Positions 41,750-59,860 of a stretch of DNA of 64,000 nt are shown in pieces. Numbering within the stretch: the stretch's first letter is position 1; each line of letters opens with the position of its first letter. This DNA is from an uncultured Acidobacteriota bacterium (GTDB taxonomy: Bacteria; Acidobacteriota; Thermoanaerobaculia; Multivoradales; JAHEKO01): assembly GCA_963713825.1 (NCBI GenBank), contig CAVQNG010000025.1, positions 352,001-416,000 of the forward strand, given 5' to 3'. A program made the translations under genes and the position numbers. The notes beneath the pieces are model-generated. The model was not told the origin of the DNA, did no database searches, and worked only from the letters and a program-made list of their open reading frames with translations.

Positions 41750-44700
41750 TCATGCTTCTTCTCCTTCTTCAGTAGTTCCTTTGTGCAGTTCTTCTGGGGT
41801 TTCGAAAAGTGGAGTGCGCTTCAACCCGATTCCACGCCACACGAAATAAATGGCGGGGAAGACAATCAGCTCGCCCATGAAGGAGGTGAACAGGCCGCCG
41901 ACCATCGGCGCTGCGATTCGCCGCATCACGTCCGCACCCGTGCCGGAGGACCACAGGATCGGGACCAGGGCGATGAAGGTCGTCACGACCGCCATGGTCT
42001 TGGGTCGGATCCGTTGGACGGCACCGTGGTCCACGGCCTCCCGGAGGTCGGAGAACGTGCTCATCCTGCCCCTGCTCTTCCAGTTCTCGTAGGCGATGTC
42101 CAGATACAGCAGCATCACCACGCCGGTTTCAGCTGCCAGCCCGGCCAGGGCGATCACTCCGACCCAGACTGCAACCGACCAGTTGTAGCCCAGCCAGTCC
42201 ATCAGCCAGATCGACCCCACCAACGCGAAGGGAACCGCCGATAGAACTATGGCGGTCTTGACCAGCGACTTCGTGTGGAAGTACAGGATCAGGAAGATCA
42301 AGATCAGGGTGATCGGCACGATGACCAGCAGGCGAGCCTTGGCCCGCTGCATGTACTCGTACTGGCCCGACCAGAAGATGCTGTAGCCTGGAGGCAGATC
42401 TACCTGTTCGGCCACCTCGCGTCTTGCCCTTTCTACCCAGCCGCCGACGTCGATGCCCCTCAAGTCCACATAAACCCAGGCATTGGGGCGGGCGCCTTCC
42501 GTCTTGATTCCTGGAGGTCCTGTTCGAATCACGAGCTCGGCTAACTGGCCAAGGGGAACTTGCGCTCCTGAAGGTGATGCGACGAGCACTTCCTTCAGCG
42601 TCGACGGGGAATCCCGAAGCTCCCGTGGATAGCGGACATTGATCGGATATCTCTCGAGACCCTCGACCGTCCAGGAGACGTTCATTCCACCGACCGCCGA
42701 TTGAATGACGTCCTGGATATCGCCGACTTTGATGCCGAAGCGTGCGGCGGCCTCCCGATCGATCTCGAAATCGATATACGAGCCACCCATCACCCGCTCG
42801 GCGTACACCGAGAGCGTGCCTGGCAGGGGCTTGACCACGGTTTCGACCTGCTCGGCAATCTGCTCGAGCGTGGTCAGGTCGGGACCCGCGACTTTGATAC
42901 CGACCGGTGTCTTGATGCCCGTCGATAGCATGTCGATCCGGGTCTTGATCGGCATGGTCCAGGCATTGGTCAAGCCGGGTATCTGGATGGCCTGGTCGAG
43001 CTCGGCGATCAGGTCTTCCTTGGTGAGGCCGGGTCTCCACTCCGATGGATCCTTGAGCACGATGGTCGTTTCGATCATCGACAAAGGAGCCGGGTCGGTG
43101 GCGGTCTCGGCACGTCCGACCTTTCCAAATACTGTTTCGACTTCTGGAAAGGTTTTAATGATCTTGTCGGTCTGTTGCAGGAGCTCCTTCGCTTTGGTGA
43201 TGGAAATGCCCGGAAACGTCGTCGGCATGTAGAGCAGATCCCCTTCCCACAGCGGTGGCATGAACTCGGAGCCGATTCTCTGCAGTGGAACAAGGGTCAC
43301 GGCAAGAATCGCGACCATCGCGAGGATCACCATCCATCGCCATCGTAGGGCCCAATTGAGGACAGGGGTGTAGAGGAAACGGAGGGCGCGGGACACCGGG
43401 TTACGGTCCTCGCTGCGGATCTTGCCTCGGACGAACCAGAACATGAGCACGGGTACGGCGGTCACGGCCAGGATAGAGGCCATGGCCATGGAGTAGGTCT
43501 TCGTGAACGCCAGGGGTTTGAAAAGACGACCCTCCTGCGCTTCGAGGGTGAAGACCGGCAGAAATGAGACCGTGATTACTAGAAGCGTGAAGAAGAGGGT
43601 TGGACCCACCTCCTGAGCCGCCTTCGTGATGATCTCCAGGTGGGATCGTTTCCCCTGCCACTCCTCGTAGTGCTTGTGGGCGTTTTCGACCATGATGATG
43701 GCCGCGTCCACCAGCACACCGATCGAGATCGCGATGCCTCCCAGAGACATGATGTTCGCGCCGATTCCCTGGATCTTCATGATGATGAATGCGAGGAGAA
43801 TCGAGACTGGAATGGAGATAATCGCGACCAGTGCCGAGCGGAAGTGAAACAGAAAGACCAGGCAGACCAGCGCCACAACAATCGATTCCTCGAGCAGGGT
43901 GCGGGTCAACGTCTCCACGGCGCGATCGATCAGGCCAGTTCGGTCGTAGGCGATGGAGATCTCCACATCTTCAGGGAGGCCGGCCTTGAGCTCCTCGAGG
44001 CGCTCCTTCACGTTCTCGATAACCGTTCGCGTGTCGGCCCCCCAGCGAACCACAACAATGCCGCCCACAGTCTCCCCTTCACCGTTCCACTCGGCCAGAC
44101 CGCGACGGATTTCGGGCCCGATGGTGACCCGCGCCACATCTCTGAGCAGCACGGGTACCCCACCTGGGGACGCGGTCAGCACGATGGTCTCGAGATCCTT
44201 CACGTTCTTCACGTAACCCAGTCCCCGAACCATGAACTCCTTCTCGGCTAGCTCGACGACCCGTCCACCAACATCGATGTTGGATCGTTGAATCGCCTTT
44301 CTCACCTGATCGATCGGAATCCCGTAGGCGCGCAGCCGTACCGGATCGACCTCGACCTGGTACTGCCGCACAAAGCCGCCGATCGACGCCACCTCGGCGA
44401 CGCCATCGACCGAAGTCAAGCCATAGCGCAGGTACCAGTCCTGATAGCTCCGCAGGTCGGCAAGCGAGTGATTCTCGGAGTTGAGAACGTACATGAAGGC
44501 CCAGCCCACTCCGGTAGCATCGGGGCCGAGCTGAGGAGCCACACCAGCAGGCAGCTGTCTCGAGAGGCCCGAGAGGTATTCCAGGACTCGGGAACGAGCC
44601 CAATAGAGATCCGTGCCATCTTCGAAGATCACGTACACGAACGAGAAGCCGAAGAAGGAATAGCCCCTGACGACTTTGGCGAATGGCACTGACAACATCG

Positions 44701-44914
44701 TCGTGGTGATGGGGTAGGTGACCTGGTCTTCGACTACCTGCGGTGCCTGCCCTGCGAACTCGGTGAAGATGATCACCTGGACGTCGGACAGGTCGGGGAT
44801 CGCGTCGACCGTGGTGTTGCGGATGGCCCAGACGCCACCCAGAACCGCCAGAATCAAGCCCACTATGACGACCAGCTGGTTTCTGAGAGACCACTCGATA
44901 ACTCGATCCAACAT
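41750..44914 (-). CDS. cusA: CusA/SilA heavy-metal RND permease
   Basis: DAIPDLSDVQV, GPDATGVGW, EFMPPLWEGDLLYMP, DPAPLSMIET and MPIKTRIDMLSTG. Confidence 0.95.
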   Translation of the reverse strand: MLDRVIEWSLRNQLVVIVGLILAVLGGVWAIRNTTVDAIPDLSDVQVIIFTEFAGQAPQVVEDQVTYPITTTMLSVPFAKVVRGYSFFGFSFVYVIFEDGTDLYWARSRVLEYLSGLSRQLPAGVAPQLGPDATGVGWAFMYVLNSENHSLADLRSYQDWYLRYGLTSVDGVAEVASIGGFVRQYQVEVDPVRLRAYGIPIDQVRKAIQRSNIDVGGRVVELAEKEFMVRGLGYVKNVKDLETIVLTASPGGVPVLLRDVARVTIGPEIRRGLAEWNGEGETVGGIVVVRWGADTRTVIENVKERLEELKAGLPEDVEISIAYDRTGLIDRAVETLTRTLLEESIVVALVCLVFLFHFRSALVAIISIPVSILLAFIIMKIQGIGANIMSLGGIAISIGVLVDAAIIMVENAHKHYEEWQGKRSHLEIITKAAQEVGPTLFFTLLVITVSFLPVFTLEAQEGRLFKPLAFTKTYSMAMASILAVTAVPVLMFWFVRGKIRSEDRNPVSRALRFLYTPVLNWALRWRWMVILAMVAILAVTLVPLQRIGSEFMPPLWEGDLLYMPTTFPGISITKAKELLQQTDKIIKTFPEVETVFGKVGRAETATDPAPLSMIETTIVLKDPSEWRPGLTKEDLIAELDQAIQIPGLTNAWTMPIKTRIDMLSTGIKTPVGIKVAGPDLTTLEQIAEQVETVVKPLPGTLSVYAERVMGGSYIDFEIDREAAARFGIKVGDIQDVIQSAVGGMNVSWTVEGLERYPINVRYPRELRDSPSTLKEVLVASPSGAQVPLGQLAELVIRTGPPGIKTEGARPNAWVYVDLRGIDVGGWVERARREVAEQVDLPPGYSIFWSGQYEYMQRAKARLLVIVPITLILIFLILYFHTKSLVKTAIVLSAVPFALVGSIWLMDWLGYNWSVAVWVGVIALAGLAAETGVVMLLYLDIAYENWKSRGRMSTFSDLREAVDHGAVQRIRPKTMAVVTTFIALVPILWSSGTGADVMRRIAAPMVGGLFTSFMGELIVFPAIYFVWRGIGLKRTPLFETPEELHKGTTEEGEEA

Positions 44915-44925
44915 GGCAATCCCCT

Positions 44926-46425
44926 TTAGTGGTCTTTCTGTTGAGAGCGCTGCGCGATCATCTTCTGCACCGCCGCTTGTAGGCTCGACTCCGAGTCGAT
45001 GAGAAACTGCGATGAGGTCACGATGCGATCCCCTTCGTTCAAACCCTCGAGAACCTCGACTTCACCACCCCCTTCGTGCCCGGTCGTGATCTCCCGAGGT
45101 GCGAAGCTCCCTTCTCCCAGGTCGACGATCACGATGCTGCGCTGCCCAGTCCTGAGGACGGCCTGCGTTGGAACGACCAGCGCCTGCTGGGCGGCTGTGG
45201 GGTGGAAGCGGACGGTGCCGAACATTCCGGCCCTGAGACGCCCGGTCGGGTTGGGGACTTCGACCTTCATGCGCAGCGTCCGAGTGGCTTCGGAGAACTC
45301 CGGCTCGATGTAGCGAACGGTGCCGCGAAAGACCTCGCCAGGGAAGTAGGTCAATTCGAGCTCGGCCACGCTGTCGATGTCGATCTGGGCCAGCTGGTGC
45401 TCGAAGACCTCGACGGACAACCAGATCGAGCGCAGATCGGCGATGTGGTACACCTCCATCCCAGGCCGGACCGCCATGCCCTCGAGCCCCGCCATCCTCT
45501 TCATGACCAGGCCACTTGCCGGCGCCACGACCTGCAAGGTCCGGAAGACCTCCCCAGTGCGCTCCAGGTTGTCGATCTGCTCGGAGGAGATATCCCAGTA
45601 GCGGAGACGCTCCCGAGCCGAGTCGACCAACGCGCTGGCCCGACGCCCCGCCTCGGCGTTAGTGCTGTCGAACTTCTTGGCGTACTGGATGGCCGACAGC
45701 AGCTCCTGCTCGGTCTGAACGAGCTCAGGAGAGTAGATTTCGAATAGAGGTTGGCCCTTCTTCACGGGCTCGCCAACGTAGTTGACGTAGACCTTCTCGA
45801 CCCAACCGGAGTACTTCGTGGTCACGGTGACCATGCGCTCCTGGTCGTACTCGAGGTAACCGACAGTGCGGATCTCCTGATTCAGGTCGCGCCGCTCGAC
45901 GACCGCGGTCTGAACGTTCATGTTCTGGACGACGACCGGGTTGATGCTGACCGTCGGGCCCTGATCAACGGCCTGGTTCGCCTCGTCTGCATAGACCGGC
46001 ACGTAGTCCATCCCCATCTCGTCCTTGGCCGGAACCGGTGAAGAGATGGTGGGGTTCATCGGATTGCGATAGAAGAGGATCTCCCGCTCGCCTCCTGCCG
46101 CCGGAGATCTCTTGGCTGATCCTTCTTGTCCACCTCCACTTAAAGGCACGAGGGCCATGCCGCAGACCGGGCACTCGCCGGGCTCGTCCTCGAGAATGTG
46201 GGGATGCATGGAGCAGGTCCAAAGCTGTTCTCCCTGTTCCTCGGAGACCATCTCCATCGTGCCGGCGTGATAGTCGAGGCGGGATTGCAGCCACCCATCG
46301 ACTGGATGCAGACCCCAGGGGTCGAAGAACAGTAGATAGAAGAGCAGAAAGCTGAAAGCGACCAACAGCAGTGCCCACAGCACCTGCTTCCCACGGGAAT
46401 TCTCAGATTTGGCAAGTGATGTCAT
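44926..46425 (-). CDS. cusB: CusB-like adaptor with heavy-metal-binding domains
   Basis: WTCSMHP...CPVCGM, YRNPM...KDEMGMDYVP, YSPEL and QFLIDSES. Confidence 0.9.
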   Translation of the reverse strand: MTSLAKSENSRGKQVLWALLLVAFSFLLFYLLFFDPWGLHPVDGWLQSRLDYHAGTMEMVSEEQGEQLWTCSMHPHILEDEPGECPVCGMALVPLSGGGQEGSAKRSPAAGGEREILFYRNPMNPTISSPVPAKDEMGMDYVPVYADEANQAVDQGPTVSINPVVVQNMNVQTAVVERRDLNQEIRTVGYLEYDQERMVTVTTKYSGWVEKVYVNYVGEPVKKGQPLFEIYSPELVQTEQELLSAIQYAKKFDSTNAEAGRRASALVDSARERLRYWDISSEQIDNLERTGEVFRTLQVVAPASGLVMKRMAGLEGMAVRPGMEVYHIADLRSIWLSVEVFEHQLAQIDIDSVAELELTYFPGEVFRGTVRYIEPEFSEATRTLRMKVEVPNPTGRLRAGMFGTVRFHPTAAQQALVVPTQAVLRTGQRSIVIVDLGEGSFAPREITTGHEGGGEVEVLEGLNEGDRIVTSSQFLIDSESSLQAAVQKMIAQRSQQKDH

Positions 46426-47816
46426 GGCTTGGATTGCTCCGTCATTGAGATCTGTTGCAGAGGCTCTGCCACCACCCCCTCGAGTTGGACCAGGCGGATG
46501 GAATAGTCGGCTTGCGCACGCGCAATCGAGGTCTCGGCCCTGAACAGGACATGTTCCGCATCCAGTAGATCGAGTGCGTTCAAGGTCCCGGATACATAGC
46601 CGTACTGGGCCGACTGGACTGACTCTTCAGCCTGCAGGATCAATATGTCCTCGAGCAGGCGGAACTGTTGCCAGGTGAGCGGTATCCGCTGCATGAGATC
46701 GCCGATCGCAGATTCGATACCGGCCAGGACATCCCGTTTGCCTTCCCGGGCGGCAAGCTCGATCTGGCTTGCCTCTTCGACACCAGCTCTGGTTCTCTTG
46801 CGCCAGATCGGAACGCTGACGCCGCCCTGGATGCCGAAGATGTCGTCGCCGTTGCCCTCGGGCGGCGAGATCATCCCCGCCTGGTCTTGCCTCGGGTCGA
46901 CGAACGTATAGGTCAGTCCGACCTTGAAGTCGGGCCGGAAAGCCTTCTCGGCCCGCTTGACCCGCGCCTCGGAGGCGGCGATGCGGGCGTCGGCAGCCGT
47001 CAATTCTGGTCGCGAGCGGATTGCGGATTCCCTTAGCCTCTCGACGTCGAGGGCGACTTGTTCGCCCTCCGGGAGCAACGCCGGGAGCAGGGTCGTCGAA
47101 GCGGGACGATCTCGCAGGTCGTTGAGGGTGGCTTCCAGGTCGACCCGGCGCAGATCGATGTCCAACAGGAGGTTCTCTGCGAGAGTGATCTCGGCCTGCA
47201 TCTTGATGACATCCTGGCTGGCGCCGGTACCTGTCGCGTAGCGCGCCTGCGAGATCTCCTCATGCTGGCGGAGATGATCGACAAAATCCTGGGTGATCTC
47301 CTTGTGTCGCACCAGGAAGGCCAGCTCGTAGTAGAGGCGGCGAACTTCTGTGGCGAGAGCGAGTCGCTTGGCCTCGACATCGGCGTAGAGTGCGGTCGCA
47401 TTGAGGAGATTCGCCTGTTCTTCCAGATCGAACTTCGAGAGCCAGGGTAGGCTCTGCAGATAGTTCAAAGTCAGCACCTGAGGTCCTGTCCGCGTTTCCG
47501 GACTCTTCAGAAATGCGGTGATACCTACGACGGGATCAGGAAGAGCTCCTACGTTCGAGGCGCGATGTTCGGCTGCGCGTGCCTGTGCGAGCCCCCTGGC
47601 GACACCTGGGTTGCGATCCAAGGCGTCGGCAACAAGTGCTTTGAGCTGATTGTCTGTCTGCGACTCCAGAAGCCGATCGGCCGGCGCCTCGATCGGGGCG
47701 GCCGTCGTCCTCTCGCCAGTTGGCGAGTGGGAACTGTCTGGGTCTGCCTGCTGTCCGGTTGCGATCGTGGCTAAAAGCGTTGCCGCAACAAGATTGATGC
47801 CGATCCTTGAATGCAC
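46422..47816 (-). CDS. TolC-family outer-membrane channel (CusC-like)
   Basis: Two OEP repeats (LPDP, RYATG, LDLLDAE) in operon with cusB/cusA. Confidence 0.88.
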   Translation of the reverse strand: MHSRIGINLVAATLLATIATGQQADPDSSHSPTGERTTAAPIEAPADRLLESQTDNQLKALVADALDRNPGVARGLAQARAAEHRASNVGALPDPVVGITAFLKSPETRTGPQVLTLNYLQSLPWLSKFDLEEQANLLNATALYADVEAKRLALATEVRRLYYELAFLVRHKEITQDFVDHLRQHEEISQARYATGTGASQDVIKMQAEITLAENLLLDIDLRRVDLEATLNDLRDRPASTTLLPALLPEGEQVALDVERLRESAIRSRPELTAADARIAASEARVKRAEKAFRPDFKVGLTYTFVDPRQDQAGMISPPEGNGDDIFGIQGGVSVPIWRKRTRAGVEEASQIELAAREGKRDVLAGIESAIGDLMQRIPLTWQQFRLLEDILILQAEESVQSAQYGYVSGTLNALDLLDAEHVLFRAETSIARAQADYSIRLVQLEGVVAEPLQQISMTEQSKP

Positions 47817-48310: not shown

Positions 48311-48480
48311 AGTGATCTTGGTGGACCTTCTGCTCACAAGATAGAGATCCACTCACGATCTGTCAAGCTGGCAGTGCACGGGCCCCCGAGGTGGTACGGT
48401 ATTAGATGGAGCATCTAAAGAGGTCCCTGCCAGGAGTTGCAGGGTCTGATTGAGGAGTCTTGCAAGCCTCGAGGAGGAAG

Positions 48481-49200
48481 ATGATGACGCAGCAAGATCG
48501 ACCAAGATTCACTTATCTGGGGCATGCCACCGTTCGATGTGACCTGCCGGACGGCAAGGTAGTGCTTATCGATCCCTGGGTGCAGGGCAACCCCGCCTGT
48601 CCGGAAGAGCTGAACGAGTTCGAGCGTATCGACGCGATGCTCGTGACCCATGCCCATTTCGACCACATCGGCGATGCGGTGGAATTGGCCGCGCGCTACG
48701 GGCCCGAAATCGTCGTCGCCAACTTCGAGACCTGCCACTGGCTGGAGAGCAAGGGCGTGGCGAACACCTCCGCGATGAACATCGGCGGCAGCCAGGATGT
48801 GCTGGGCTGCAAGGTGACCATGGTCAGGGCCGATCACTCCTGCGGCATCCTGGATGGCGACCAGATTCTCTACGGTGGCACGGCGAGCGGCTACGTCGTC
48901 GAGCTGGCAGGTGGATTCACCTTCTACCATACTGGTGACACGGGACTCTTCTCGGACATGCAACTGATCGCTGAGATGCATCGCCCGGAGCTGGCATTCG
49001 TGCCTATCGGTGACCTGTTCACCATGGGTCCGGAGGCCGCCGCCCGAGCCTGTCGGTTCCTGGAGGCTCGCAAGGTGATTCCGATTCACTGGCAGACCTT
49101 TCCAATCCTTACCGGCACGCCTGTTGAGCTGGAGGAGGCGCTCACCCAGCTCGGCGGGCGCACCGAAGTGATCACTCTGCAGCCCGGTGAGTCCTACTGA
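48481..49200 (+). CDS. Metal-dependent MBL-fold hydrolase (UPF0173-like)
   Basis: YLGHA, IDPW..NP, THAHFDH, YHTGDT and IPIH. GAGGAGG RBS. Confidence 0.9.
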   Translation: MMTQQDRPRFTYLGHATVRCDLPDGKVVLIDPWVQGNPACPEELNEFERIDAMLVTHAHFDHIGDAVELAARYGPEIVVANFETCHWLESKGVANTSAMNIGGSQDVLGCKVTMVRADHSCGILDGDQILYGGTASGYVVELAGGFTFYHTGDTGLFSDMQLIAEMHRPELAFVPIGDLFTMGPEAAARACRFLEARKVIPIHWQTFPILTGTPVELEEALTQLGGRTEVITLQPGESY

Positions 49201-49224
49201 GCCGGATCGGTCTCCCTGACACTG

Positions 49225-49890
49225 ATGCCGACGAGCACTGTCGAGGACTATCTGAAGTGCATCCTGCTGGCTGAGCAGGAGGCACCCGATCAGCCTGTGA
49301 GCACCGGCCAGATCGCGGCCGCACTGGGTGTCGCTCCCGGCACGGTGACGGCGATGCTCAAGACCCTGGCCAACAGCAGTCTGGTGAGCTATGAGCCCTA
49401 TTCTGGGGTGTCCCTCACGGATCCCGGACGTCAGCTGGCGGTGCATGTGCTGCGCCGTCATCGACTGGTAGAGCTGTTTCTGGTTCGGGTCATGGGTCTC
49501 GACTGGGCGGAAGTGCACGACGAAGCGGAGCTGCTGGAGCACGCCGTGTCGGATCGCATCATCGAGCGCATGGATGCCATGCTAGGGGAGCCCGATGTGG
49601 ATCCCCATGGTGACCCGATCCCAACGGCGGGTGGAGAGGTGGAGCATCGAGAGCTGCAGAGCCTGCTCGACTGTCCGCTGGATGTCTGGCTGCAGATCGC
49701 CCGGGTCACCGATCAGACTGCCGACTTCCTCCAGTTGGTGGAGACCGAACATCTGAAGCCCGGTAGCCGGCTCATGGTTACTGGTCGCGACGAGGCCGCC
49801 GACACCATGCAGTTGGAGAGACCCGGGGTGGGGCCGTTGGCGCTGGGCTGGCGAGCGGCTTCCAAGATTCTGGTTGCCGAAAAGCCCTAG
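49225..49890 (+). CDS. DtxR/MntR metal-dependent regulator with FeoA-like domain
   Basis: EDYLK, RRHRLVELFL, VHDEAELLEH and DPHGDPIP. Confidence 0.92.
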   Translation: MPTSTVEDYLKCILLAEQEAPDQPVSTGQIAAALGVAPGTVTAMLKTLANSSLVSYEPYSGVSLTDPGRQLAVHVLRRHRLVELFLVRVMGLDWAEVHDEAELLEHAVSDRIIERMDAMLGEPDVDPHGDPIPTAGGEVEHRELQSLLDCPLDVWLQIARVTDQTADFLQLVETEHLKPGSRLMVTGRDEAADTMQLERPGVGPLALGWRAASKILVAEKP

Positions 49891-50893: not shown

Positions 50894-51104
50894 GAGTGAT
50901 GGGGTCCTGAATCGGTCGATCGATCCTAGCAGTCGAAGGCGGCCCGGGGCTCAGATGGTGTCACGTCTTCGGCGATGCAGAGAGATATGGAAATATGGCG
51001 ATTAGATATACTGGCGGCATCTCTTGGGCAGGCGATCCAGGGGCAGTTCCGATGGCTGTGAAGGGCTCCATTCCTGTTCGAAGGACGACTGACTAGATTT
51101 CCAT

Positions 51105-52157
51105 ATGTCGATGGCGAGGCAAGACCGAATCAAGCGTCGCATGATTCGTCAGGTGGTGCGCGACAATCTCGAAACCATCGAGGGAGCTCGCCCCCGACGA
51201 CGGGGACGCCGTCTCCGGACGGTGCTGACCGTGGCTCGGGTACTCTTCCTGGTCGCGCTTCCGGCTGCCCTGTTCACCTCCTCCTACGTCTTGTCGACCG
51301 TGGCCGCCGAGTGGCGGGAAGACGTCTGGTTGGATGGGGCTCAAGGCGCCAGGACCTCCACACAGGCCCCCAGGGTCTTCAGCGAAATGGAGCCGCTGCC
51401 GCCGATCGAGACGGGCCGTTCCCTGGTGACGCCCCAGCCGATCGATCCGTCCGTGCTGCCTCTGGCGCTGCACACCGTGGTGCTGGATCCAGGCCATGGA
51501 GGAGACAACGAAGGAACGGTCTCACCGACAGGCCTCATCGAGAAGGAGATCACACTGGACATCGCCCAGCGCGTCCAGAGCCTGCTCGAGAGCTACTCGT
51601 ACAAGGTCGTGATGACGCGCCGGCGGGATGTCGATTTCTCGCTCAAGCAGCGAGCCGAGTTGGCCAACGAGGCCAGGGGTGACATCTTTGTCTCCATTCA
51701 CGTGAACTGGATCGAAAATCGGGAGGTCCGGGGTGTCGAGACTTTCTTTCTTGGCGCCACCGAGGACCCCTACTTGGAAGCCCTGGCGGCGCGAGAGAAC
51801 CAGAACTCGGGTTACTCGTTGGCCGACTTCCGAGACATCCTGGAGCAGGTCTACGCCGGGGTGAGGCAAGAGGAGTCCCGGCAGTTGGCGGGCGCCATGC
51901 AGCAGGCGCTTTACGAATCGCTGAAGGCCGTGAACTCGAAGGTTCGGGACCGCGGCGTCAAGAGTGCGCCCTTTGGTGTCCTGACCCACACCGAAATGCC
52001 CGCCATCCTGGCCGAGGTCTCTTGTGTGTCCAACGACGTCGAAGCCCGGCTCCTGATGACGCCGATCTACCGTCAGTATCTCGCCGAGGCCATCGTGGAG
52101 GGTATTCAGATCTATGCCCGCAGCCTCGGCCAGTCCAACAACCGCCTCGAGGGTTGA
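51105..52157 (+). CDS. N-acetylmuramoyl-L-alanine amidase (Amidase_3), N-terminally membrane-anchored
   Basis: LDPGHGG, EKE, SIHVN and PAILAE (Zn ligands and catalytic Glu). Arg-rich N-tail followed by a TM helix. Confidence 0.92.
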   Translation: MSMARQDRIKRRMIRQVVRDNLETIEGARPRRRGRRLRTVLTVARVLFLVALPAALFTSSYVLSTVAAEWREDVWLDGAQGARTSTQAPRVFSEMEPLPPIETGRSLVTPQPIDPSVLPLALHTVVLDPGHGGDNEGTVSPTGLIEKEITLDIAQRVQSLLESYSYKVVMTRRRDVDFSLKQRAELANEARGDIFVSIHVNWIENREVRGVETFFLGATEDPYLEALAARENQNSGYSLADFRDILEQVYAGVRQEESRQLAGAMQQALYESLKAVNSKVRDRGVKSAPFGVLTHTEMPAILAEVSCVSNDVEARLLMTPIYRQYLAEAIVEGIQIYARSLGQSNNRLEG

Positions 52158-52160
52158 TCG

Positions 52161-53207
52161 ATGTCCGAAGACACACCAGAGCAGGGAAGCGAGAGGGTGC
52201 TCAATCTGGGAGTCGATTTGGGCACTTCCAGAAGCTCGGTGTCGGCTTCGAACGGCGTCCGCCAGGCGGTTGAAAGCTACGTTGGATGGCCTCTCGACAT
52301 GGTGGCCAGCAAGGTTCTGAAGAGAGATGTGCTGGTGGGGAAGGAGGCGATCGACAATCGCCTGATGCTGGATCTACACCGGCCGTTGGAACGGGGGCTG
52401 ATCAAAGAGGGGTCGGAGAAGGATGTTCTGGCAGTGCGCGAGCTGCTGAAGCATCTGGTCTCGTTGGCCCTGGCGGGGGCTGATCGGGAGAGTCTGCTGA
52501 TCCAAGCCGTGGTTGGCGTTCCGGCGGAGGCCCTGAGAGTCAACAAGCAGCAGCTGCGCAGCGCGCTCAAAGGAATCGTGGACTCGTTGATGATCGTTTC
52601 CGAGCCCTTTGCAGTGGCCTACGGCTTGGAGTCGCTGGTCAACGCATTGATCATCGACATCGGAGCCGGCACAGCGGATTTCTGTGTCATGCACGGCAGG
52701 TACCCTCTAGAGGAGGACCAGCGTACGCTGCCCATCGCCGGCGATCATGTGGACGAGCAGCTCCACCGGCTGATCACCTCCAAGTACCCAGACGCGAAGA
52801 TCTCACTCCACATGGCCCGCGAGTGGAAGGAGAGGTTCAGCTTCATGGGAGAGCCCATCGAGAAGGTATGGATCGTGGCGCCGGTCCAGGGACGCCCCAC
52901 GGAGTTCGACGCAACCGAGCCGATGCGGGCGGCCTGCGAGAGCTTGCTTCCAGCTGTCAGGGAGACCATGCTGGATCTGATTTCGCGGGTGCAGCCCGAG
53001 TATCAGGACAAGGTGCGCAACAACGTGATTCTTTCCGGGGGTAGCGGTCTGATTCGCGGCTTCGGACTGGCCCTGCAGGAAGCCCTCGAGGAAGTTGGCG
53101 GTGGTCGGGTCAGGGTGGTCGCCGACCCTCTCCATGTCGGGGCCGACGGTGGCCTGGCCCTGGCCATGGATGCGCCGCCCTCGGAATGGGACAAAGTGGC
53201 CGCGTGA
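52161..53207 (+). CDS. MamK-like bacterial actin
   Basis: GVDLGTS, VVGVPA, VSEPF, DIGAGT, QPEYQ and SGGS. Length and motifs match MamK as recalled, better than MreB. Confidence 0.85.
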   Translation: MSEDTPEQGSERVLNLGVDLGTSRSSVSASNGVRQAVESYVGWPLDMVASKVLKRDVLVGKEAIDNRLMLDLHRPLERGLIKEGSEKDVLAVRELLKHLVSLALAGADRESLLIQAVVGVPAEALRVNKQQLRSALKGIVDSLMIVSEPFAVAYGLESLVNALIIDIGAGTADFCVMHGRYPLEEDQRTLPIAGDHVDEQLHRLITSKYPDAKISLHMAREWKERFSFMGEPIEKVWIVAPVQGRPTEFDATEPMRAACESLLPAVRETMLDLISRVQPEYQDKVRNNVILSGGSGLIRGFGLALQEALEEVGGGRVRVVADPLHVGADGGLALAMDAPPSEWDKVAA

Positions 53208-53261
53208 TCCCCCTCCCACACTCCCGGCCCGGGGCTTGGGACTTGGGCATGTAGGATTTTC

Positions 53262-53303
53262 CCCAGGACCCAGGACCCAGGACCCAGGACCCAGGACCCA
53301 GGA
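53262..53303. repeat. Perfect heptamer tandem repeat (CCCAGGA)x6
   Basis: Read directly from the sequence, between convergent genes. Preceded by inverted variants GGGGCTTGGGACTTGGG. Confidence 0.95.
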
Positions 53304-53321
53304 CCTGGGCTGCCGTCCCGC

Positions 53322-54626
53322 TCAAAGCGGAATCCGAACGATTGCGGGTGGAGGAAAGTCCTCCAGGTCCGCTTCAGCATCGATCGGAGGCGAGGCGGTG
53401 ACGAACACGAAGCCGTCACTGACCGCGCTGGTGTAGGGATCCAAACCCTCCGCAAGGCCGATGTTCAGCTGGTGAAGGTGCGTTGCTTGCCGGCCCGTTG
53501 CATCGAGCTCGATCCACACCACCCGGTTGTTGAGCGAGGGCTGGTTCTGCACCAGGATCAGCCTACCCTCCGCCCAACTCAAGCCGTCAGCCGAGACCAG
53601 TGTGAGATCGCCTTGCGGAACGACTCGCTCGACCGCACCTGTGGCCGCATCAATGGCGGAAAGTCCCTCTGCGTGGGCGACGTAGATGGTCCGCCCATCG
53701 CCGGAGGCTGCAATGCCGTTGGCGAAACCGAACTGGGGGAGCTCGAGGAAGATCTCCAGTGCTTCGGCCCCGGGCGGTAACCGATAGAGCTTCCCGGCGA
53801 GGCTCTCGGTGAGCCAGGCAGTTCCGTCGGGAGTGACAACCACGTCATTGACCAGCAGGATCTGATCGGTGTCCGGAACCGGATATCGAGCCACGAGCTC
53901 ACCGGTATCGACGTTGTAGCGCACGAGCTCGGCGGGATGTGTCATCTCCGCCATCGAGGTCGAGCCTGAAGCGGCCCAGAGCTCTCGGCTGTCAGCATCG
54001 ACCCACATCCCGAGGACTGCGCCGAGACCGTCGTTCGCCGAATCGCCAAGGTCGGAAACGGTTCCATCCGGAGAGATGCGGACGATCTTGCGCAGCAGAA
54101 AGCTGCCGGTGAACAGGTCGTCGGTAACGGCATCCCAGGCGATTCCTTCAGGAGAGAGCCTCTTTTCATCGAATGTAACGAAGACCTCGGCGGGCTCCTG
54201 CGGTTCGCCGTTGGCCCGGATCTGGTCGGCCACCCGAGCGAAGTCTGGATGATCCAGCAGTGGCTCGAAGATGGGCTGGTCGAGCTGTGTGGTCGTGCCT
54301 CCAAGACGGCCCAGAGTAGACAAGTGAGCGACGGCTTCGTCCAGCTGCCCGAGCCGGACCTCGACCTCGGCAATGCGCTCGTAGACAATCGGGTGCTCGG
54401 GGGCCACAGCCAGGGCCTCGAGATAGATCTGGTGCGCCGACTCCCAGTCCTCTTCGGCTTTGGCTTGTCTGACATCCTGGCCGAGGACTGCGAGATTGGT
54501 GGTCCTGGTCTCGGCTACCGGAGCCGTCTCCGGGGTACGGGGCGGTTCGGGTTGTGGACTCGAATCGGAGCAGCCGTGAGTCAGTAGAGTCAGGGCGATC
54601 AGGGTAGGTCCGAAACCTCGCAGCAT
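53322..54626 (-). CDS. Lipoprotein with TPR and SMP-30/gluconolactonase-like beta-propeller
   Basis: LTHGC lipobox. PEGIAWD, NDVVV, ANGIA and ADGL motifs. Confidence 0.8.
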   Translation of the reverse strand: MLRGFGPTLIALTLLTHGCSDSSPQPEPPRTPETAPVAETRTTNLAVLGQDVRQAKAEEDWESAHQIYLEALAVAPEHPIVYERIAEVEVRLGQLDEAVAHLSTLGRLGGTTTQLDQPIFEPLLDHPDFARVADQIRANGEPQEPAEVFVTFDEKRLSPEGIAWDAVTDDLFTGSFLLRKIVRISPDGTVSDLGDSANDGLGAVLGMWVDADSRELWAASGSTSMAEMTHPAELVRYNVDTGELVARYPVPDTDQILLVNDVVVTPDGTAWLTESLAGKLYRLPPGAEALEIFLELPQFGFANGIAASGDGRTIYVAHAEGLSAIDAATGAVERVVPQGDLTLVSADGLSWAEGRLILVQNQPSLNNRVVWIELDATGRQATHLHQLNIGLAEGLDPYTSAVSDGFVFVTASPPIDAEADLEDFPPPAIVRIPL

Positions 54627-54721
54627 CGACTTTCCCTCTTCAGTGTTGACCTGAGTACGGTCTCGGCTCAGTCTGGTTTCGTCTGAGGATACAGTGAGCC
54701 CCCTTCGAAATCGCCTCTGAG

Positions 54722-56146
54722 CTAGGGAACGACTGCCGACCAGTAGCGCCAATCCCCTGATTCGAAGCCATCCCCGAAGATCACCGCGATGCCCTCGTAC
54801 ATCCCGATGTCGACCGTCCCGTTGATGATTCGGGGTGTGCCGTCGAAATCGGCGACACCAAGACCACCCGGCGGATCGTTATCGCCAGCGTCCTCGGCAG
54901 GTGAGCCGGGCTCCAGATGGTAATCGAGGTTTTCCGGATCGGTAAAGAGTGGATCGAGACCGATCAGATTGGCACCGTCGTCCAATCTGGCCGACGCCTC
55001 CAGGTCCACCAGGTTGCCGAAGGAGATCGTGTTGTAGAGGCTGATGTCGCCAAACTCGTAGATCGCCAGATGCAGCCCGGTATCCGTGTGGTCGGCTGCG
55101 GTGAGGTTCGTCAGGTGAATCTGCCCCGAGTCGATCACATAGGCATACACACCGTCGGATTCGCCCTGGGCAATTCCCGAGTCCCTCACGGTTATTGTCG
55201 AGACGTCCGTCGCCATGGCTCTGAGCTGAGAGCCCCCTGCGGCCCCCGTTGCGGTATTGAGCATGACTCCTGTTCGTTCGATCACGGCGACAGCAGATTG
55301 TGAAGATTCAATGCTCAAGCCGGAAGCAACCCTGACATCTCCGATTGCCGTGTTGTTGAAGATTCGCGAGTCCAGAAGTCGACCCTGGGCGAAGTGTTCC
55401 GTCCTTAGATAAACCCCACCTCCCAGGGCATCATCGCCACCGGGATTCTCAATGCTGTTGCCGTCGAACTGAGAGTCTTCGACAGTAAAATGGGCGTTGC
55501 CACCAGCCATGATCGAGAGACCGGCTCCATAGACCGCAGCCTGATTGCGGCTGATCGCCAGGTTCTGTTGGGCGACCAGGTTACTGATTTCCAGGCTCTC
55601 ATCGCCGTCGATATCCGCACTCACGCCACCACCATGAACCGAGCCCGATGAAATCGACGTATTGCCGATCACCTGCAGGTTCTCGAGCTCGACACGTGCA
55701 CCGCCTTCGAGAAGAATCTGGATTCCGGCCCCTTTCTCCGCCTGCCCATTGGTGACGGTGAAGCCCTTCAGCAAGAGCTCACCTCCGTCAATACGAACCC
55801 TCGCTACCGCATTCTCCTCACCGCCGTCGATCACTGTCGTGGTCGGGTCGTTGTCCCTTGTCGAGAAAGGGCAATCCCAGCCACCCGTCATCTCGACCCT
55901 CCCGGCATCGAAGGTCTTTGGGAAGAGAAGATTCTCCTCGTATGTGGAGTTACCCTGGATCCTTATCTCGGTGTCGTCACCTACGACCAACGCATCGATA
56001 GCATCCTGGATATCGTCGTAGGTGCCACACGTCCCTACCGTGGAGATCGTTGTCTGAGCGACTGAGCCCACCGGCAGCAGGACCAGCAGAAGGCCACATA
56101 GGCCGAAACTCGACAGACACGTCCGATTCTTGATTGCCGATTTCAT
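54722..56146 (-). CDS. Secreted right-handed beta-helix protein with C-terminal IFGDGFESGD motif
   Basis: YDDIQDAI, TVIDG, GGG/N-rich repeats, DYHL..GSPA.DAG...DIGMYE and the IFGDGFESGD tail. Confidence 0.8.
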   Translation of the reverse strand: MKSAIKNRTCLSSFGLCGLLLVLLPVGSVAQTTISTVGTCGTYDDIQDAIDALVVGDDTEIRIQGNSTYEENLLFPKTFDAGRVEMTGGWDCPFSTRDNDPTTTVIDGGEENAVARVRIDGGELLLKGFTVTNGQAEKGAGIQILLEGGARVELENLQVIGNTSISSGSVHGGGVSADIDGDESLEISNLVAQQNLAISRNQAAVYGAGLSIMAGGNAHFTVEDSQFDGNSIENPGGDDALGGGVYLRTEHFAQGRLLDSRIFNNTAIGDVRVASGLSIESSQSAVAVIERTGVMLNTATGAAGGSQLRAMATDVSTITVRDSGIAQGESDGVYAYVIDSGQIHLTNLTAADHTDTGLHLAIYEFGDISLYNTISFGNLVDLEASARLDDGANLIGLDPLFTDPENLDYHLEPGSPAEDAGDNDPPGGLGVADFDGTPRIINGTVDIGMYEGIAVIFGDGFESGDWRYWSAVVP

Positions 56147-56181
56147 TGGATCCCTCCATGATTCGATTCGGAGACTGGTAG

Positions 56182-59860
<3,679 letters not shown>

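Follow-up and report, generated by a model that had tools for sequence, protein, structure and literature searches.

A MamK-lineage actin outside magnetosome gene clusters and its conserved neighbour, a candidate membrane-spanning cell-wall amidase

The window considered here is a stretch of 64,000 nucleotides from an uncultured Acidobacteriota bacterium of the class Thermoanaerobaculia (GenBank assembly GCA_963713825.1, contig CAVQNG010000025.1, positions 352,001 to 416,000). The assembly comprises 5.42 Mb in 38 contigs and is 96.36% complete, and all whole-genome scans described below take in the window. On its forward strand the window carries a gene for an actin-like protein of the lineage of MamK, the magnetosome actin, and directly upstream of it a gene for an N-acetylmuramoyl-L-alanine amidase. 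The amidase gene ends with the stop codon TGA at 52155-52157, which is followed by 3 nucleotides and then by the ATG of the actin gene at 52161. The two genes stand side by side in nearly all related loci sampled, and the relation between their products is the subject of this report. The gene pair is laid out as follows:

50894 to 51104, forward strand: intergenic region that separates the amidase gene from the SQS_PSY gene, which points the other way; presumed promoter of a putative two-gene operon, from the gene layout and a reading of the sequence
51105 to 52157, forward strand: predicted bitopic N-acetylmuramoyl-L-alanine amidase of 350 amino acids (Pfam Amidase_3, 166.9 bits), the conserved partner gene
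52149 to 52153, forward strand: GAGGG, a Shine-Dalgarno-like site for the actin gene within the last codons of the amidase gene, from a reading of the sequence
52161 to 53207, forward strand: MamK-lineage actin-like ATPase of 348 amino acids, from the open reading frame (ORF) call, hidden Markov models (HMMs), alignment to PDB sequences and a structural model

The ORF listing with translation gives an ATG-initiated frame of 348 codons at 52161..53207, matching exactly the position and length at which an original prediction, made from the letters of the window, had placed an actin-fold protein. All motif blocks named in that prediction are found in the translation: the phosphate loops DLGTS and DIGAGT, and further AVVGVPA, VSEPFAVAYGL, EEDQRTLPIAGDHVDE, KERFSF, ACESLLP, QPEYQDKVRNN and APPSEW. 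The MreB-type signature DIGGGT is missing from the translation, as had been claimed, with DIGAGT in its place. The segments that had been named as specific to MamK are truly common to MamK. In a residue-by-residue alignment with the MamK structure 5LJW, their equivalents are AVIGVPA, VSEPFMVGYGL, EDQVTLTKAGNYVDE, KEQFSF, ACEALMP, QPEYQDTVLQN and PPQYW, and the actin and the MamK of M. magneticum have in common the SEPF hinge, EDQ.TL..AG..VDE, KE.FSF, ACE.L.P, QPEYQ and the terminal PP..W. Both phosphate loops and D166 are invariant in an alignment of 61 actin homologues, and E148 is kept in at least 90% of them. E148 and D166 are the counterparts of MamK E143 and D161, which are required for ATPase activity. 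The motif features of the actin are:

52215 to 52229, forward strand: phosphate-1 loop DLGTS, residues 19-23, invariant in the 61 homologues
52656 to 52673, forward strand: phosphate-2 loop DIGAGT, residues 166-171, with D166, G168, A169, G170 and T171 invariant
53160 to 53201, forward strand: C-terminal helix and PP..W tail, residues 334-347, the second wall of the predicted cleft described below, with P339 and W343 invariant in the 61 homologues

Profile scores place the actin far nearer to MamK than to MreB. The NCBIfam MamK model (NF040964) gives 375.3 bits, which is 25 bits short of its curated cut-off of 400, whereas the NCBIfam MreB models give 46-55 bits against cut-offs of 293-366, and the BeeR model (NF053558) gives 201 bits against 530. 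Pfam returns generic families alone, MreB_Mbl (best, 64.6 bits) and Actin. The best PDB sequence matches are three MamK entries (265-269 bits, E ~1e-78, over residues 11-345), headed by 5LJW (269 bits, E 5e-79) and followed by BeeR 8R2N (139 bits) and MreB (44 bits). Full-length identity to M. magneticum MamK is 44-45%. An AlphaFold model built on the 61-homologue alignment has a mean predicted local distance difference test (pLDDT) value of 91.5, and its closest fold is the MamK filament 5LJV (TMq 0.90, TMt 0.96, root-mean-square deviation 1.7 A), with weaker matches to BeeR (TMq 0.84) and to MreB (0.75-0.80). The N-terminus is acidic and disordered in this model (pLDDT 40 over residues 1-10). 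The actin is of the MamK lineage, and by score, context and clade it lies outside MamK proper.

The actin is not a magnetosome gene. It is the one MamK-like gene of its genome, and an NCBIfam scan of the whole genome for MamI, MamP, MamQ and MamB, with MamA, MamE, MamM and MamO outside the search, found none of these families at cut-off: MamI had zero matches (cut-off 80 bits), and the best scores were 24.6 bits for MamP (cut-off 300), 88 bits for MamQ (cut-off 250) and 125 bits for CDF_MamB (cut-off 350). The true MreB of the genome, with 486 bits on PF06723, is encoded on another contig and is followed by MreC and MreD. The original prediction had described 64 kb without mam genes among housekeeping neighbours. 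The first part extends genome-wide for the four families searched, and the second part fails for the gene at 51105-52157, which is the conserved amidase partner. Its inference of a non-magnetosome, MamK-lineage cytoskeleton is borne out by the HMMs, the solved sequences, the fold, the trees and the mam-gene scans. Neither a place within the MreB clade nor a complete magnetosome cluster elsewhere, the two findings that it had named as speaking against its reading, was seen.

Relatives of the actin are found widely. A word-indexed search gave 5294 proteins at E <= 0.001 among 8000 candidates scored; the best 120 of these are 61-99% identical to the actin, and the named ones among the best 120 are called 'rod shape-determining protein' and come from Thermoanaerobaculia or Acidobacteriota metagenome-assembled genomes. 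An exhaustive search of representatives at 50% identity gave 958 clusters at E <= 0.001, of which 181 reach E <= 1e-30. Of 472 pattern matches in a species-level genome collection, 416 contain a gene for a relative. In a sample of 301 Acidobacteriota genomes, the genome of the window (G000) and 24 of the 300 others have a match at E <= 1e-60. These 24 include all 11 other sampled genomes of the same order, each with the same amidase partner, 8 of the 16 sampled in other orders of the class and 5 of the 273 from elsewhere in the phylum, and only 2 of the 25 matches exceed the MamK cut-off (NF040964). Five relatives (G005, G007, G042, G173, G217) have one in-frame stop (TAG, TGA or TAA) in the open frame around the actin match; this stop probably belongs to the upstream gene, which overlaps or abuts the actin gene and was read through in the six-frame search.

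Outside this group, the nearest representative (P0122) has relatives named from Desulfobulbaceae, Syntrophobacteraceae, Defluviicoccus and Hyphomicrobium, some of which carry the NCBI name 'MamK family actin-like protein', and another MamK-like clade (P0126) belongs to the Planctomycetota. Judged from sequence, the clade is large and takes in Thermoanaerobaculia, Desulfobulbaceae, Syntrophobacteraceae and others. From the counts across genomes, clusters and clades, MamK-like actins without magnetosomes are numerous, and the rarity implied by the original prediction does not hold, since hundreds of species carry the clade and NCBI had already given some relatives a MamK family name.

Phylogenetic trees were anchored by P0139, which scores 463 bits to MamK 5JYG, and by P0241, which scores 403 bits to BeeR 8R2N, with the genome's own MreB as outgroup. 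Representatives shorter than 325 amino acids were left out, as were the partial matches P0124, P0125, P0143, P0153, P0178, P0196, P0209, P0212, P0244 and P0159, and most rows for fusion proteins were left out of the FastTree and LG+C20 PMSF trees. The three trees gave:

IQ-TREE LG+G4, 75 rows: window clade of 9 rows, support 99; MamK-anchor clade of 13 rows, support 99; window clade and P0122 joined, support 98
FastTree, 144 rows: window clade of 20 rows, support 98; MamK-anchor clade of 13 rows, support 99; the two amidase-linked clades not joined
IQ-TREE LG+C20 PMSF, 66 rows: window clade of 10 rows, support 99; MamK-anchor clade of 9 rows, support 98; the amidase-linked clades joined, support 93

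The actin thus does not group in the MreB clade and stands in a clade of its own with support of 98-99. This clade is separate from the MamK-anchor (P0139) clade, the MamK of deep-branching magnetotactic phyla being unlabelled in the trees. BeeR falls outside all MamK-like clades in all three trees, with weak deeper nodes.

The amidase gene accompanies the actin gene throughout these relatives. Among 80 genome loci with an actin 62-95% identical to that of the window, a same-strand amidase gene lies directly upstream in 78 by tblastn, and L056, which was not caught by tblastn, has an upstream amidase by Pfam (162.5 bits), so that the arrangement is present in 79 of 80. A further 80 loci from metagenomes, retrieved with an alignment of the outside clade and encoding actins 45-54% identical to the window's, show it in 78 cases. 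In the three exceptions, the actin gene stands at the end of a contig: L034 has 86 bases upstream of it, and L091 and L138 begin with the actin gene. The two genes are separated by a few bases or overlap, these distances being approximate since start codons were set by rule. No other neighbour is conserved, the next most frequent family occurring in 21 of 156 loci, and ligA and the SQS_PSY gene are syntenic among the closer relatives alone.

Genomes with and without the actin also differ in their amidases. In five of five genomes of the same class without the actin, one of which (G024) is unpublished, the only amidase matches cover profile positions 119-342, which is the catalytic domain, in a paralogue of about 520 amino acids. 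In five of five genomes with the actin there is also a full-length amidase match, over positions 2-342, which ends 23 to 56 bases before the actin gene. The figures for adjacency and co-occurrence are counts and not statistics, as kin are non-independent. The genome of the window has two further Amidase_3 genes, G000:C3:1143703-1144341 (191 bits) and G000:C25:618180-618947 (73 bits). The former encodes a protein of 509 amino acids, in which the N-terminal 278 residues have no Pfam match and AMIN is undetected, and its counterpart of about 520 amino acids is the sole amidase match in the relatives without the actin. Three of the loci (L011, L057 and L060) are labelled Polyangiaceae, Methylomirabilales and Rokubacteria, with an actin 63-77% and an amidase 48-61% identical to those of the window; these labels could reflect mislabelled bins or gene transfer.

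The partner amidase is built of several parts, which the AlphaFold model (pLDDT 84.9) and the homologues delimit as follows:

51111 to 51179, forward strand: putative cytoplasmic amphipathic helix, residues 3-25, bearing the tail motif with Asn21 invariant (AlphaFold model, motif survey); predicted contact surface for the actin
51180 to 51218, forward strand: Arg-rich linker, residues 26-38, probably on the cytoplasmic side of the membrane helix (homologue composition; topology from the positive-inside rule)
51219 to 51308, forward strand: hydrophobic membrane helix, about residues 39-68, a signal anchor or possibly a cleavable export signal (model, homologues)
51309 to 51464, forward strand: Pro-rich linker, presumably periplasmic, about residues 69-120, of low confidence (pLDDT 47-64 over residues 71-120) and without secondary structure
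51465 to 52154, forward strand: Amidase_3 catalytic domain, residues 121-350, with H131, E146, H199 and E304 invariant (Pfam, alignment, Foldseek)
51750 to 51932, forward strand: insert, residues 216-276, matching the regulatory region of AmiA/AmiB/AmiC (phmmer alignments)

The N-terminal helix carries a tail motif, (R/K)-h-(K/R)-x-x-h-L-(R/K)-x-h-h-x-(D/E)-N-(L/V), which was found in 140 of 157 upstream amidase ORFs. The motif HMM was derived from regular-expression matches and was used at a permissive threshold (E <= 10), so that some matches are weak (0.6 and 3.7 bits). Of the 17 ORFs without the motif, 15 are cut by a contig end and 2 are over-long ORF calls, in which the first 200 residues were searched. 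Among the 140 ORFs with the motif, the central Asn is present in 98%, K or R at position -11 in 97% and Leu at position -7 in 85%. In the same 140 homologues, the uncharged stretch has a median length of 21-22 residues, and the interval between motif and hydrophobic stretch contains a median of 7 K/R and 0 D/E. In the AlphaFold model of the window amidase the N-terminal helix is followed by a short basic loop and then by a long hydrophobic helix over residues 35-78. By the positive-inside rule, the basic linker would place the tail helix in the cytoplasm and the enzyme outside.

The catalytic part resembles the amidases of Escherichia coli. H131, E146, H199 and E304 are invariant in 61 amidase sequences and are, as we assume, the zinc ligands and the catalytic Glu. 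Foldseek gives E. coli AmiA 8c2o as the best match, with AmiC 4bin and AmiB 3ne8 next. In phmmer alignments the amidase runs unbroken across residues 216-276 with 8c2o, 4bin, 3ne8 and 8c0j, and 4rn7 and 5emi, two amidases without the insert, align as separate segments with these residues left out, which indicates at the level of sequence that an AmiA/B/C-type regulatory insert is present in the partner. The curated cut-offs of the AmiA/B/C equivalogs are missed (AmiA 104 of 400 bits, AmiC 99 of 700, AmiB 84 of 532), and no AMIN domain was found, Pfam giving Amidase_3 alone. Models of the twin-arginine translocation (Tat) signal in Pfam and NCBIfam have no match to the amidase at E <= 0.01. Of 140 homologues, 89 have a twin arginine (RR) close to the hydrophobic stretch and 51 have none, and the strict Tat consensus [STGAN]RRx[FLIVM][LIVMF] is present in 3 of 140, for which reason a Tat signal was rejected as a defining feature of this amidase.

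A contact between the two proteins was predicted from the actin alignment (61 rows) and from amidase residues 1-38 (61 rows, same loci). The predicted complex scored 0.86 in three of three runs, compared with 0.01 for the best of three controls. Of 80 solved complexes, 58 attain the score mark used, as do 2 of 110 mismatched pairs, a calibration that applies only roughly here because our own alignments, both from the same loci, were supplied. The runs have at least 88% of their contacts in common, with a partner pLDDT of at least 72. In the model, tail residues 9-25 lie against actin residues 126-133 (a helix), 143-146 (a strand), 154-160, 179-181 and 334-347, and Asn21 meets residues 143-145, Leu14 meets 334 and 337-339, and Lys10 meets Y154 and D337. 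From the general topology of the actin fold, we take this site to be the cleft between subdomains IA and IIA. The cleft is encoded at:

52536 to 52703, forward strand: actin residues that line the predicted tail cleft, 126, 129-130, 133, 143-146, 154, 157, 159-160 and 179-181 (complex model)

Comparison between clades bears on the same surface. Actin positions 126 and 133 are R or K in both amidase-linked clades and hydrophobic in the MamK-anchor clade and the other MamK-like clades; the window actin has R126 and R133, and basicity at these positions is specific to the amidase-linked clades. Tail position -3 is V where actin positions 342/338 are D/A (57-61 pairs), and Y or F where position 342 is Y or F and position 338 is M (about 58 pairs). 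The complex model supports docking of the tail helix on the actin, as a matter of model confidence rather than of measurement.

These observations can be brought together in one mechanism, in which the second gene of a conserved and probable two-gene operon would encode a filament-forming, ATP-hydrolysing actin without a magnetosome role. The product of the first gene would consist of a cytoplasmic helix, a basic linker, a membrane helix, a flexible periplasmic linker and an AmiA/B/C-type domain with its insert. The cytoplasmic helix would dock into the hydrophobic IA/IIA cleft of the actin, and filaments underlying the inner membrane would thereby be physically joined to a wall-cutting enzyme in the periplasm. 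The filament may recruit, array or move the amidase, and the amidase may in turn serve as the membrane anchor of the filament, as the actin itself lacks a membrane-binding segment. Such coupling would set the site of peptidoglycan cleavage, possibly in cell separation or in local wall remodelling, and a separate activation step is suggested by the regulatory insert that the amidase retains. With moderate confidence, we favour physical coupling of a MamK-lineage filament to a periplasmic peptidoglycan amidase through the cytoplasmic tail of the latter. The job of the actin, which the original prediction had called uncharacterised, thus has a lead in its conserved and probably physical partner.

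Several points weigh against this coupling. The contact of tail and actin expresses the confidence of a predictor and not measured binding. The IA/IIA cleft is an adaptor site on other actins (ParR on ParM, WH2 on actin), and part of the complex score may reflect a general likeness to actin adaptors. Interface residues K129, Y154, L159, G179 and P339 are conserved across every MamK-like clade, true MamK among them, so that the cleft surface may also serve polymer contacts, in which case the tail could bind monomers or filament ends only. The correlated changes of tail and actin track the split between the two clades and therefore amount to about one evolutionary event, and FastTree does not unite the two amidase-linked clades. 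Instead of an anchor, the hydrophobic segment might be an export signal that is cleaved off, RR being nearby in 89 of 140 homologues. As two other Amidase_3 genes are present in the genome, the partner need not be the cell-separation amidase.

Other explanations of the gene pair differ mainly in what the tail helix does. The actin might bind the amidase only before export, the N-terminus of the enzyme being a long Sec or Tat signal peptide that is cleaved after export and whose n-region helix the actin holds beforehand; the actin would then be a holding or targeting factor for the time and place of export, with the mature enzyme unattached in the periplasm. The predicted contact fits this equally well, 57 of 73 homologues in one clade and 32 of 67 in the other have RR no more than 12 residues from the hydrophobic stretch, a few from metagenomes have SRRRSFLLK, near the Tat consensus, and VAA directly past the hydrophobic stretch of the window amidase is a possible signal-peptidase site. 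E. coli AmiA and AmiC are Tat substrates, which also counts in its favour. Nevertheless, we consider pre-export binding unlikely: the strict consensus is found in 3 of 140 homologues and RR is missing from 51 of 140, a linker so rich in Arg would contain RR by chance, no Tat-signal model of Pfam or NCBIfam matches at E <= 0.01, and an uncharged stretch with a median of 21-22 residues is more anchor-like. Improbable to a similar degree is that the two proteins serve one process under common regulation without touching, the tail helix binding the membrane surface or a divisome protein and the actin having another cargo or anchor. The helix is amphipathic with basic flanks, like membrane-targeting helices, many actin interface residues are conserved in clades without a known amidase link, and a high complex score does not amount to binding. 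On the other side stand the invariant Asn and the conserved acidic residues in the middle of the helix, which are unusual on a lipid-binding face, the score of 0.86 against 0.01 for controls, the restriction of basic residues 126/133 to amidase-linked actins, the restriction of the tail-bearing amidase to genomes that have the actin, seen in 10 of 10 that were checked, and the lack of any other conserved neighbour.

The amidase might also be mainly an anchor or nucleator for a filament that positions another cytoplasmic cargo, as MamK does with magnetosomes, with wall cleavage being secondary. This would suit an actin that lacks a membrane-binding segment and has an acidic, disordered N-terminus, and the nearest characterised relative organises an organelle, according to the available part of PMC11929497. 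A third conserved gene is not seen in 156 loci, however, and conservation of the catalytic residues and of the regulatory insert indicates that the enzyme itself is under selection, so that we regard a mainly anchoring role as quite doubtful. That the gene is a displaced or relic true mamK, its cluster being elsewhere or lost, was rejected and is given next to no credence. The protein has all MamK blocks, 44-45% identity to M. magneticum MamK and a score only 25 bits under the cut-off, but MamI, MamP, MamQ and MamB are not found at cut-off in a 96.36%-complete genome, the same gene and its conserved amidase partner are present in 11 of 11 sampled genomes of the same order with relatives in 416 stretches, and its clade lies apart from the MamK-anchor clade (support 99 and 98-99). 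A second MreB-type rod-shape protein, as most database names have it, was likewise rejected and is extremely improbable. The name 'rod shape-determining protein' and the best Pfam match, MreB_Mbl at 64.6 bits, agree with it, but MreB models give 46-55 bits against 293-366, DIGGGT is missing, fold and sequence are nearest to MamK, and a real MreB with 486 bits is encoded in mreBCD.

Compared with systems already described, the amidase has its nearest catalytic domains in E. coli AmiA, AmiB and AmiC (8C2O, 8C0J, 4BIN; Bartonella AmiB 3NE8), with 100, 78 and 91.5 bits, respectively. These are also nearest in fold and have the insert of about 50 residues that is seen in the window amidase. Unlike them, the window amidase has no AMIN domain or recognised Tat signal, and has instead predicted cytoplasmic and membrane helices and an actin gene behind it. 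In ParM-ParR of plasmid R1, a short adaptor helix docks in the IA/IIA cleft of a bacterial actin, and ParR binds DNA. The docking step is like that proposed for the amidase tail; there is no sequence relation, the adaptor proposed here is the tail of a periplasmic enzyme, and the locus is chromosomal and vertically conserved. In MreB-RodZ (2WUS), the helix-turn-helix domain of RodZ sits on subdomain IIA and no enzyme is involved. This too ties a bacterial actin to wall metabolism via the cytoplasmic N-terminus of a bitopic protein, whereas in the window the putative bitopic protein is itself a hydrolase.

MamK of M. magneticum AMB-1 (5LJV, 5LJW, 5JYG) shares with the window actin its lineage, the phosphate loops, the SEPF hinge and the PP..W C-terminus. 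The window actin differs in that its genome has none of the four magnetosome families searched, scores under the cut-off (375 vs 400), falls in a separate clade, is partnered with an amidase and has a cleft with basic residues at 126/133, which are hydrophobic in the MamK-anchor clade. A study in mBio of diverse MamK proteins covers, in its available text, magnetotactic species alone (PMC10653835). BeeR of Opitutus terrae and other Verrucomicrobiota (8R2N), the second-best solved match of the actin, is likewise found in non-magnetotactic bacteria, and is described in the part of the source at hand as a MamK relative with 25-30% identity, an unknown function and a disordered N-terminal extension of 30-50 residues (PMC11929497). 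The window actin has about 10 disordered N-terminal residues and no long extension, it scores 201 bits against the BeeR cut-off of 530, and the BeeR clade is an outgroup to all MamK-like clades. The word 'operon' has no occurrence in the available portion of PMC11929497.

A further comparison is Bbp ('big bacteria protein') of Ca. Electrothrix gigas, which is also MamK-like, lies outside magnetosome clusters and is additional to MreB. It is described, in the accessible part of its source, as a MamK-like actin of large bacteria whose cluster holds a hypothetical and a Kelch-like protein (PMC10580974), and the word 'amidase' never occurs in the main text of that paper. The neighbourhood in the window is unlike that of Bbp, which was compared by its published description. 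No description of a pairing between a MamK-like actin and an amidase was found in the literature searched, and the supplements of the BeeR and Bbp papers could hold relevant data on neighbourhood or phylogeny. MamK-like actins without magnetosomes were already known, and what is new here is probably the conserved and likely physical pair of actin and amidase.

Bacterial actins guide wall synthesis (MreB) and division (FtsA), and control of wall hydrolases is generally placed in the periplasm or with FtsEX-type relays. If true, a direct link between actin polymer and amidase, one to one, would add a new means of choosing the site at which the wall is cut. It would also give a function to many proteins of Acidobacteriota, Desulfobacterota and others that are annotated as 'MamK family' or 'rod shape-determining'. 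More tentatively, and with somewhat less than even confidence, we propose that this is a widespread and previously unrecognised system, in which the filament grips the tail of the amidase and sends polymer dynamics across the inner membrane without a divisome or elongasome, and that wall remodelling is perhaps older than magnetosome alignment. The latter order of events could hold because both amidase-linked clades fall into a single group next to true MamK; magnetosomes may have taken over their actin from an amidase-linked system, and the pair has a bearing on the origin of MamK. The pair is small and tractable, with a peptide of 38 residues and an actin of 348 residues. As a caution, a mamK-like sequence alone is an unsafe marker of magnetotactic bacteria.

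Fused forms of such actins also exist. Nine long proteins with a C-terminal MamK-like domain (P0133, P0134, P0138, P0140, P0141, P0142, P0146, P0147 and P0156) have 705-1232 amino acids, and fused-actin proteins form a clade of 14 rows with support 99 in the IQ-TREE LG+G4 tree. In the 10 of 19 long representatives that were scanned, the N-terminal parts (370-900 residues) have no Pfam domain and no amidase, so that the fusions give no Rosetta-stone support to the pairing of actin and amidase. A reading of the locus as a defence system was rejected: PADLOC scores for the actin were only 18.4 and 12.6 bits, and the amidase had no match. Seven RNA-sequencing runs from three studies contain 0.06-0.16 of the sampled words.

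The surroundings of the pair in the window comprise several other genes. In the closest relatives (L009, L011, L012, L014), ligA lies within a few hundred bases past the actin gene, and about 3 kb lie between the two in the window. This stretch, 53208-56187, holds a gene at 53322-54752 on the opposite strand for a protein of 476 amino acids with TPR and SGL (SMP-30/gluconolactonase-like) matches, and an ORF of 119 amino acids, and it looks like a local insertion. Just past the actin gene, at 53200-53330, a heptapeptide is doubled in two frames (GPGSWVL twice and GPRTQD.. twice), which points to a short tandem DNA repeat. Upstream of the pair, at 48460-49890 on the forward strand, genes for an MBL-fold hydrolase and a DtxR/MntR-type metal repressor with a FeoA-like C-terminal domain follow one another, and both are syntenic with the amidase-actin pair in the nearer relatives L008-L014 and L019. 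Further upstream, at 41750-47816 on the reverse strand, lies a CusCBA-like metal efflux operon. It encodes an AcrB/CusA-type pump of 1054 amino acids (751 bits), an outer-membrane factor and a membrane-fusion protein that begins with a heavy-metal-binding domain.

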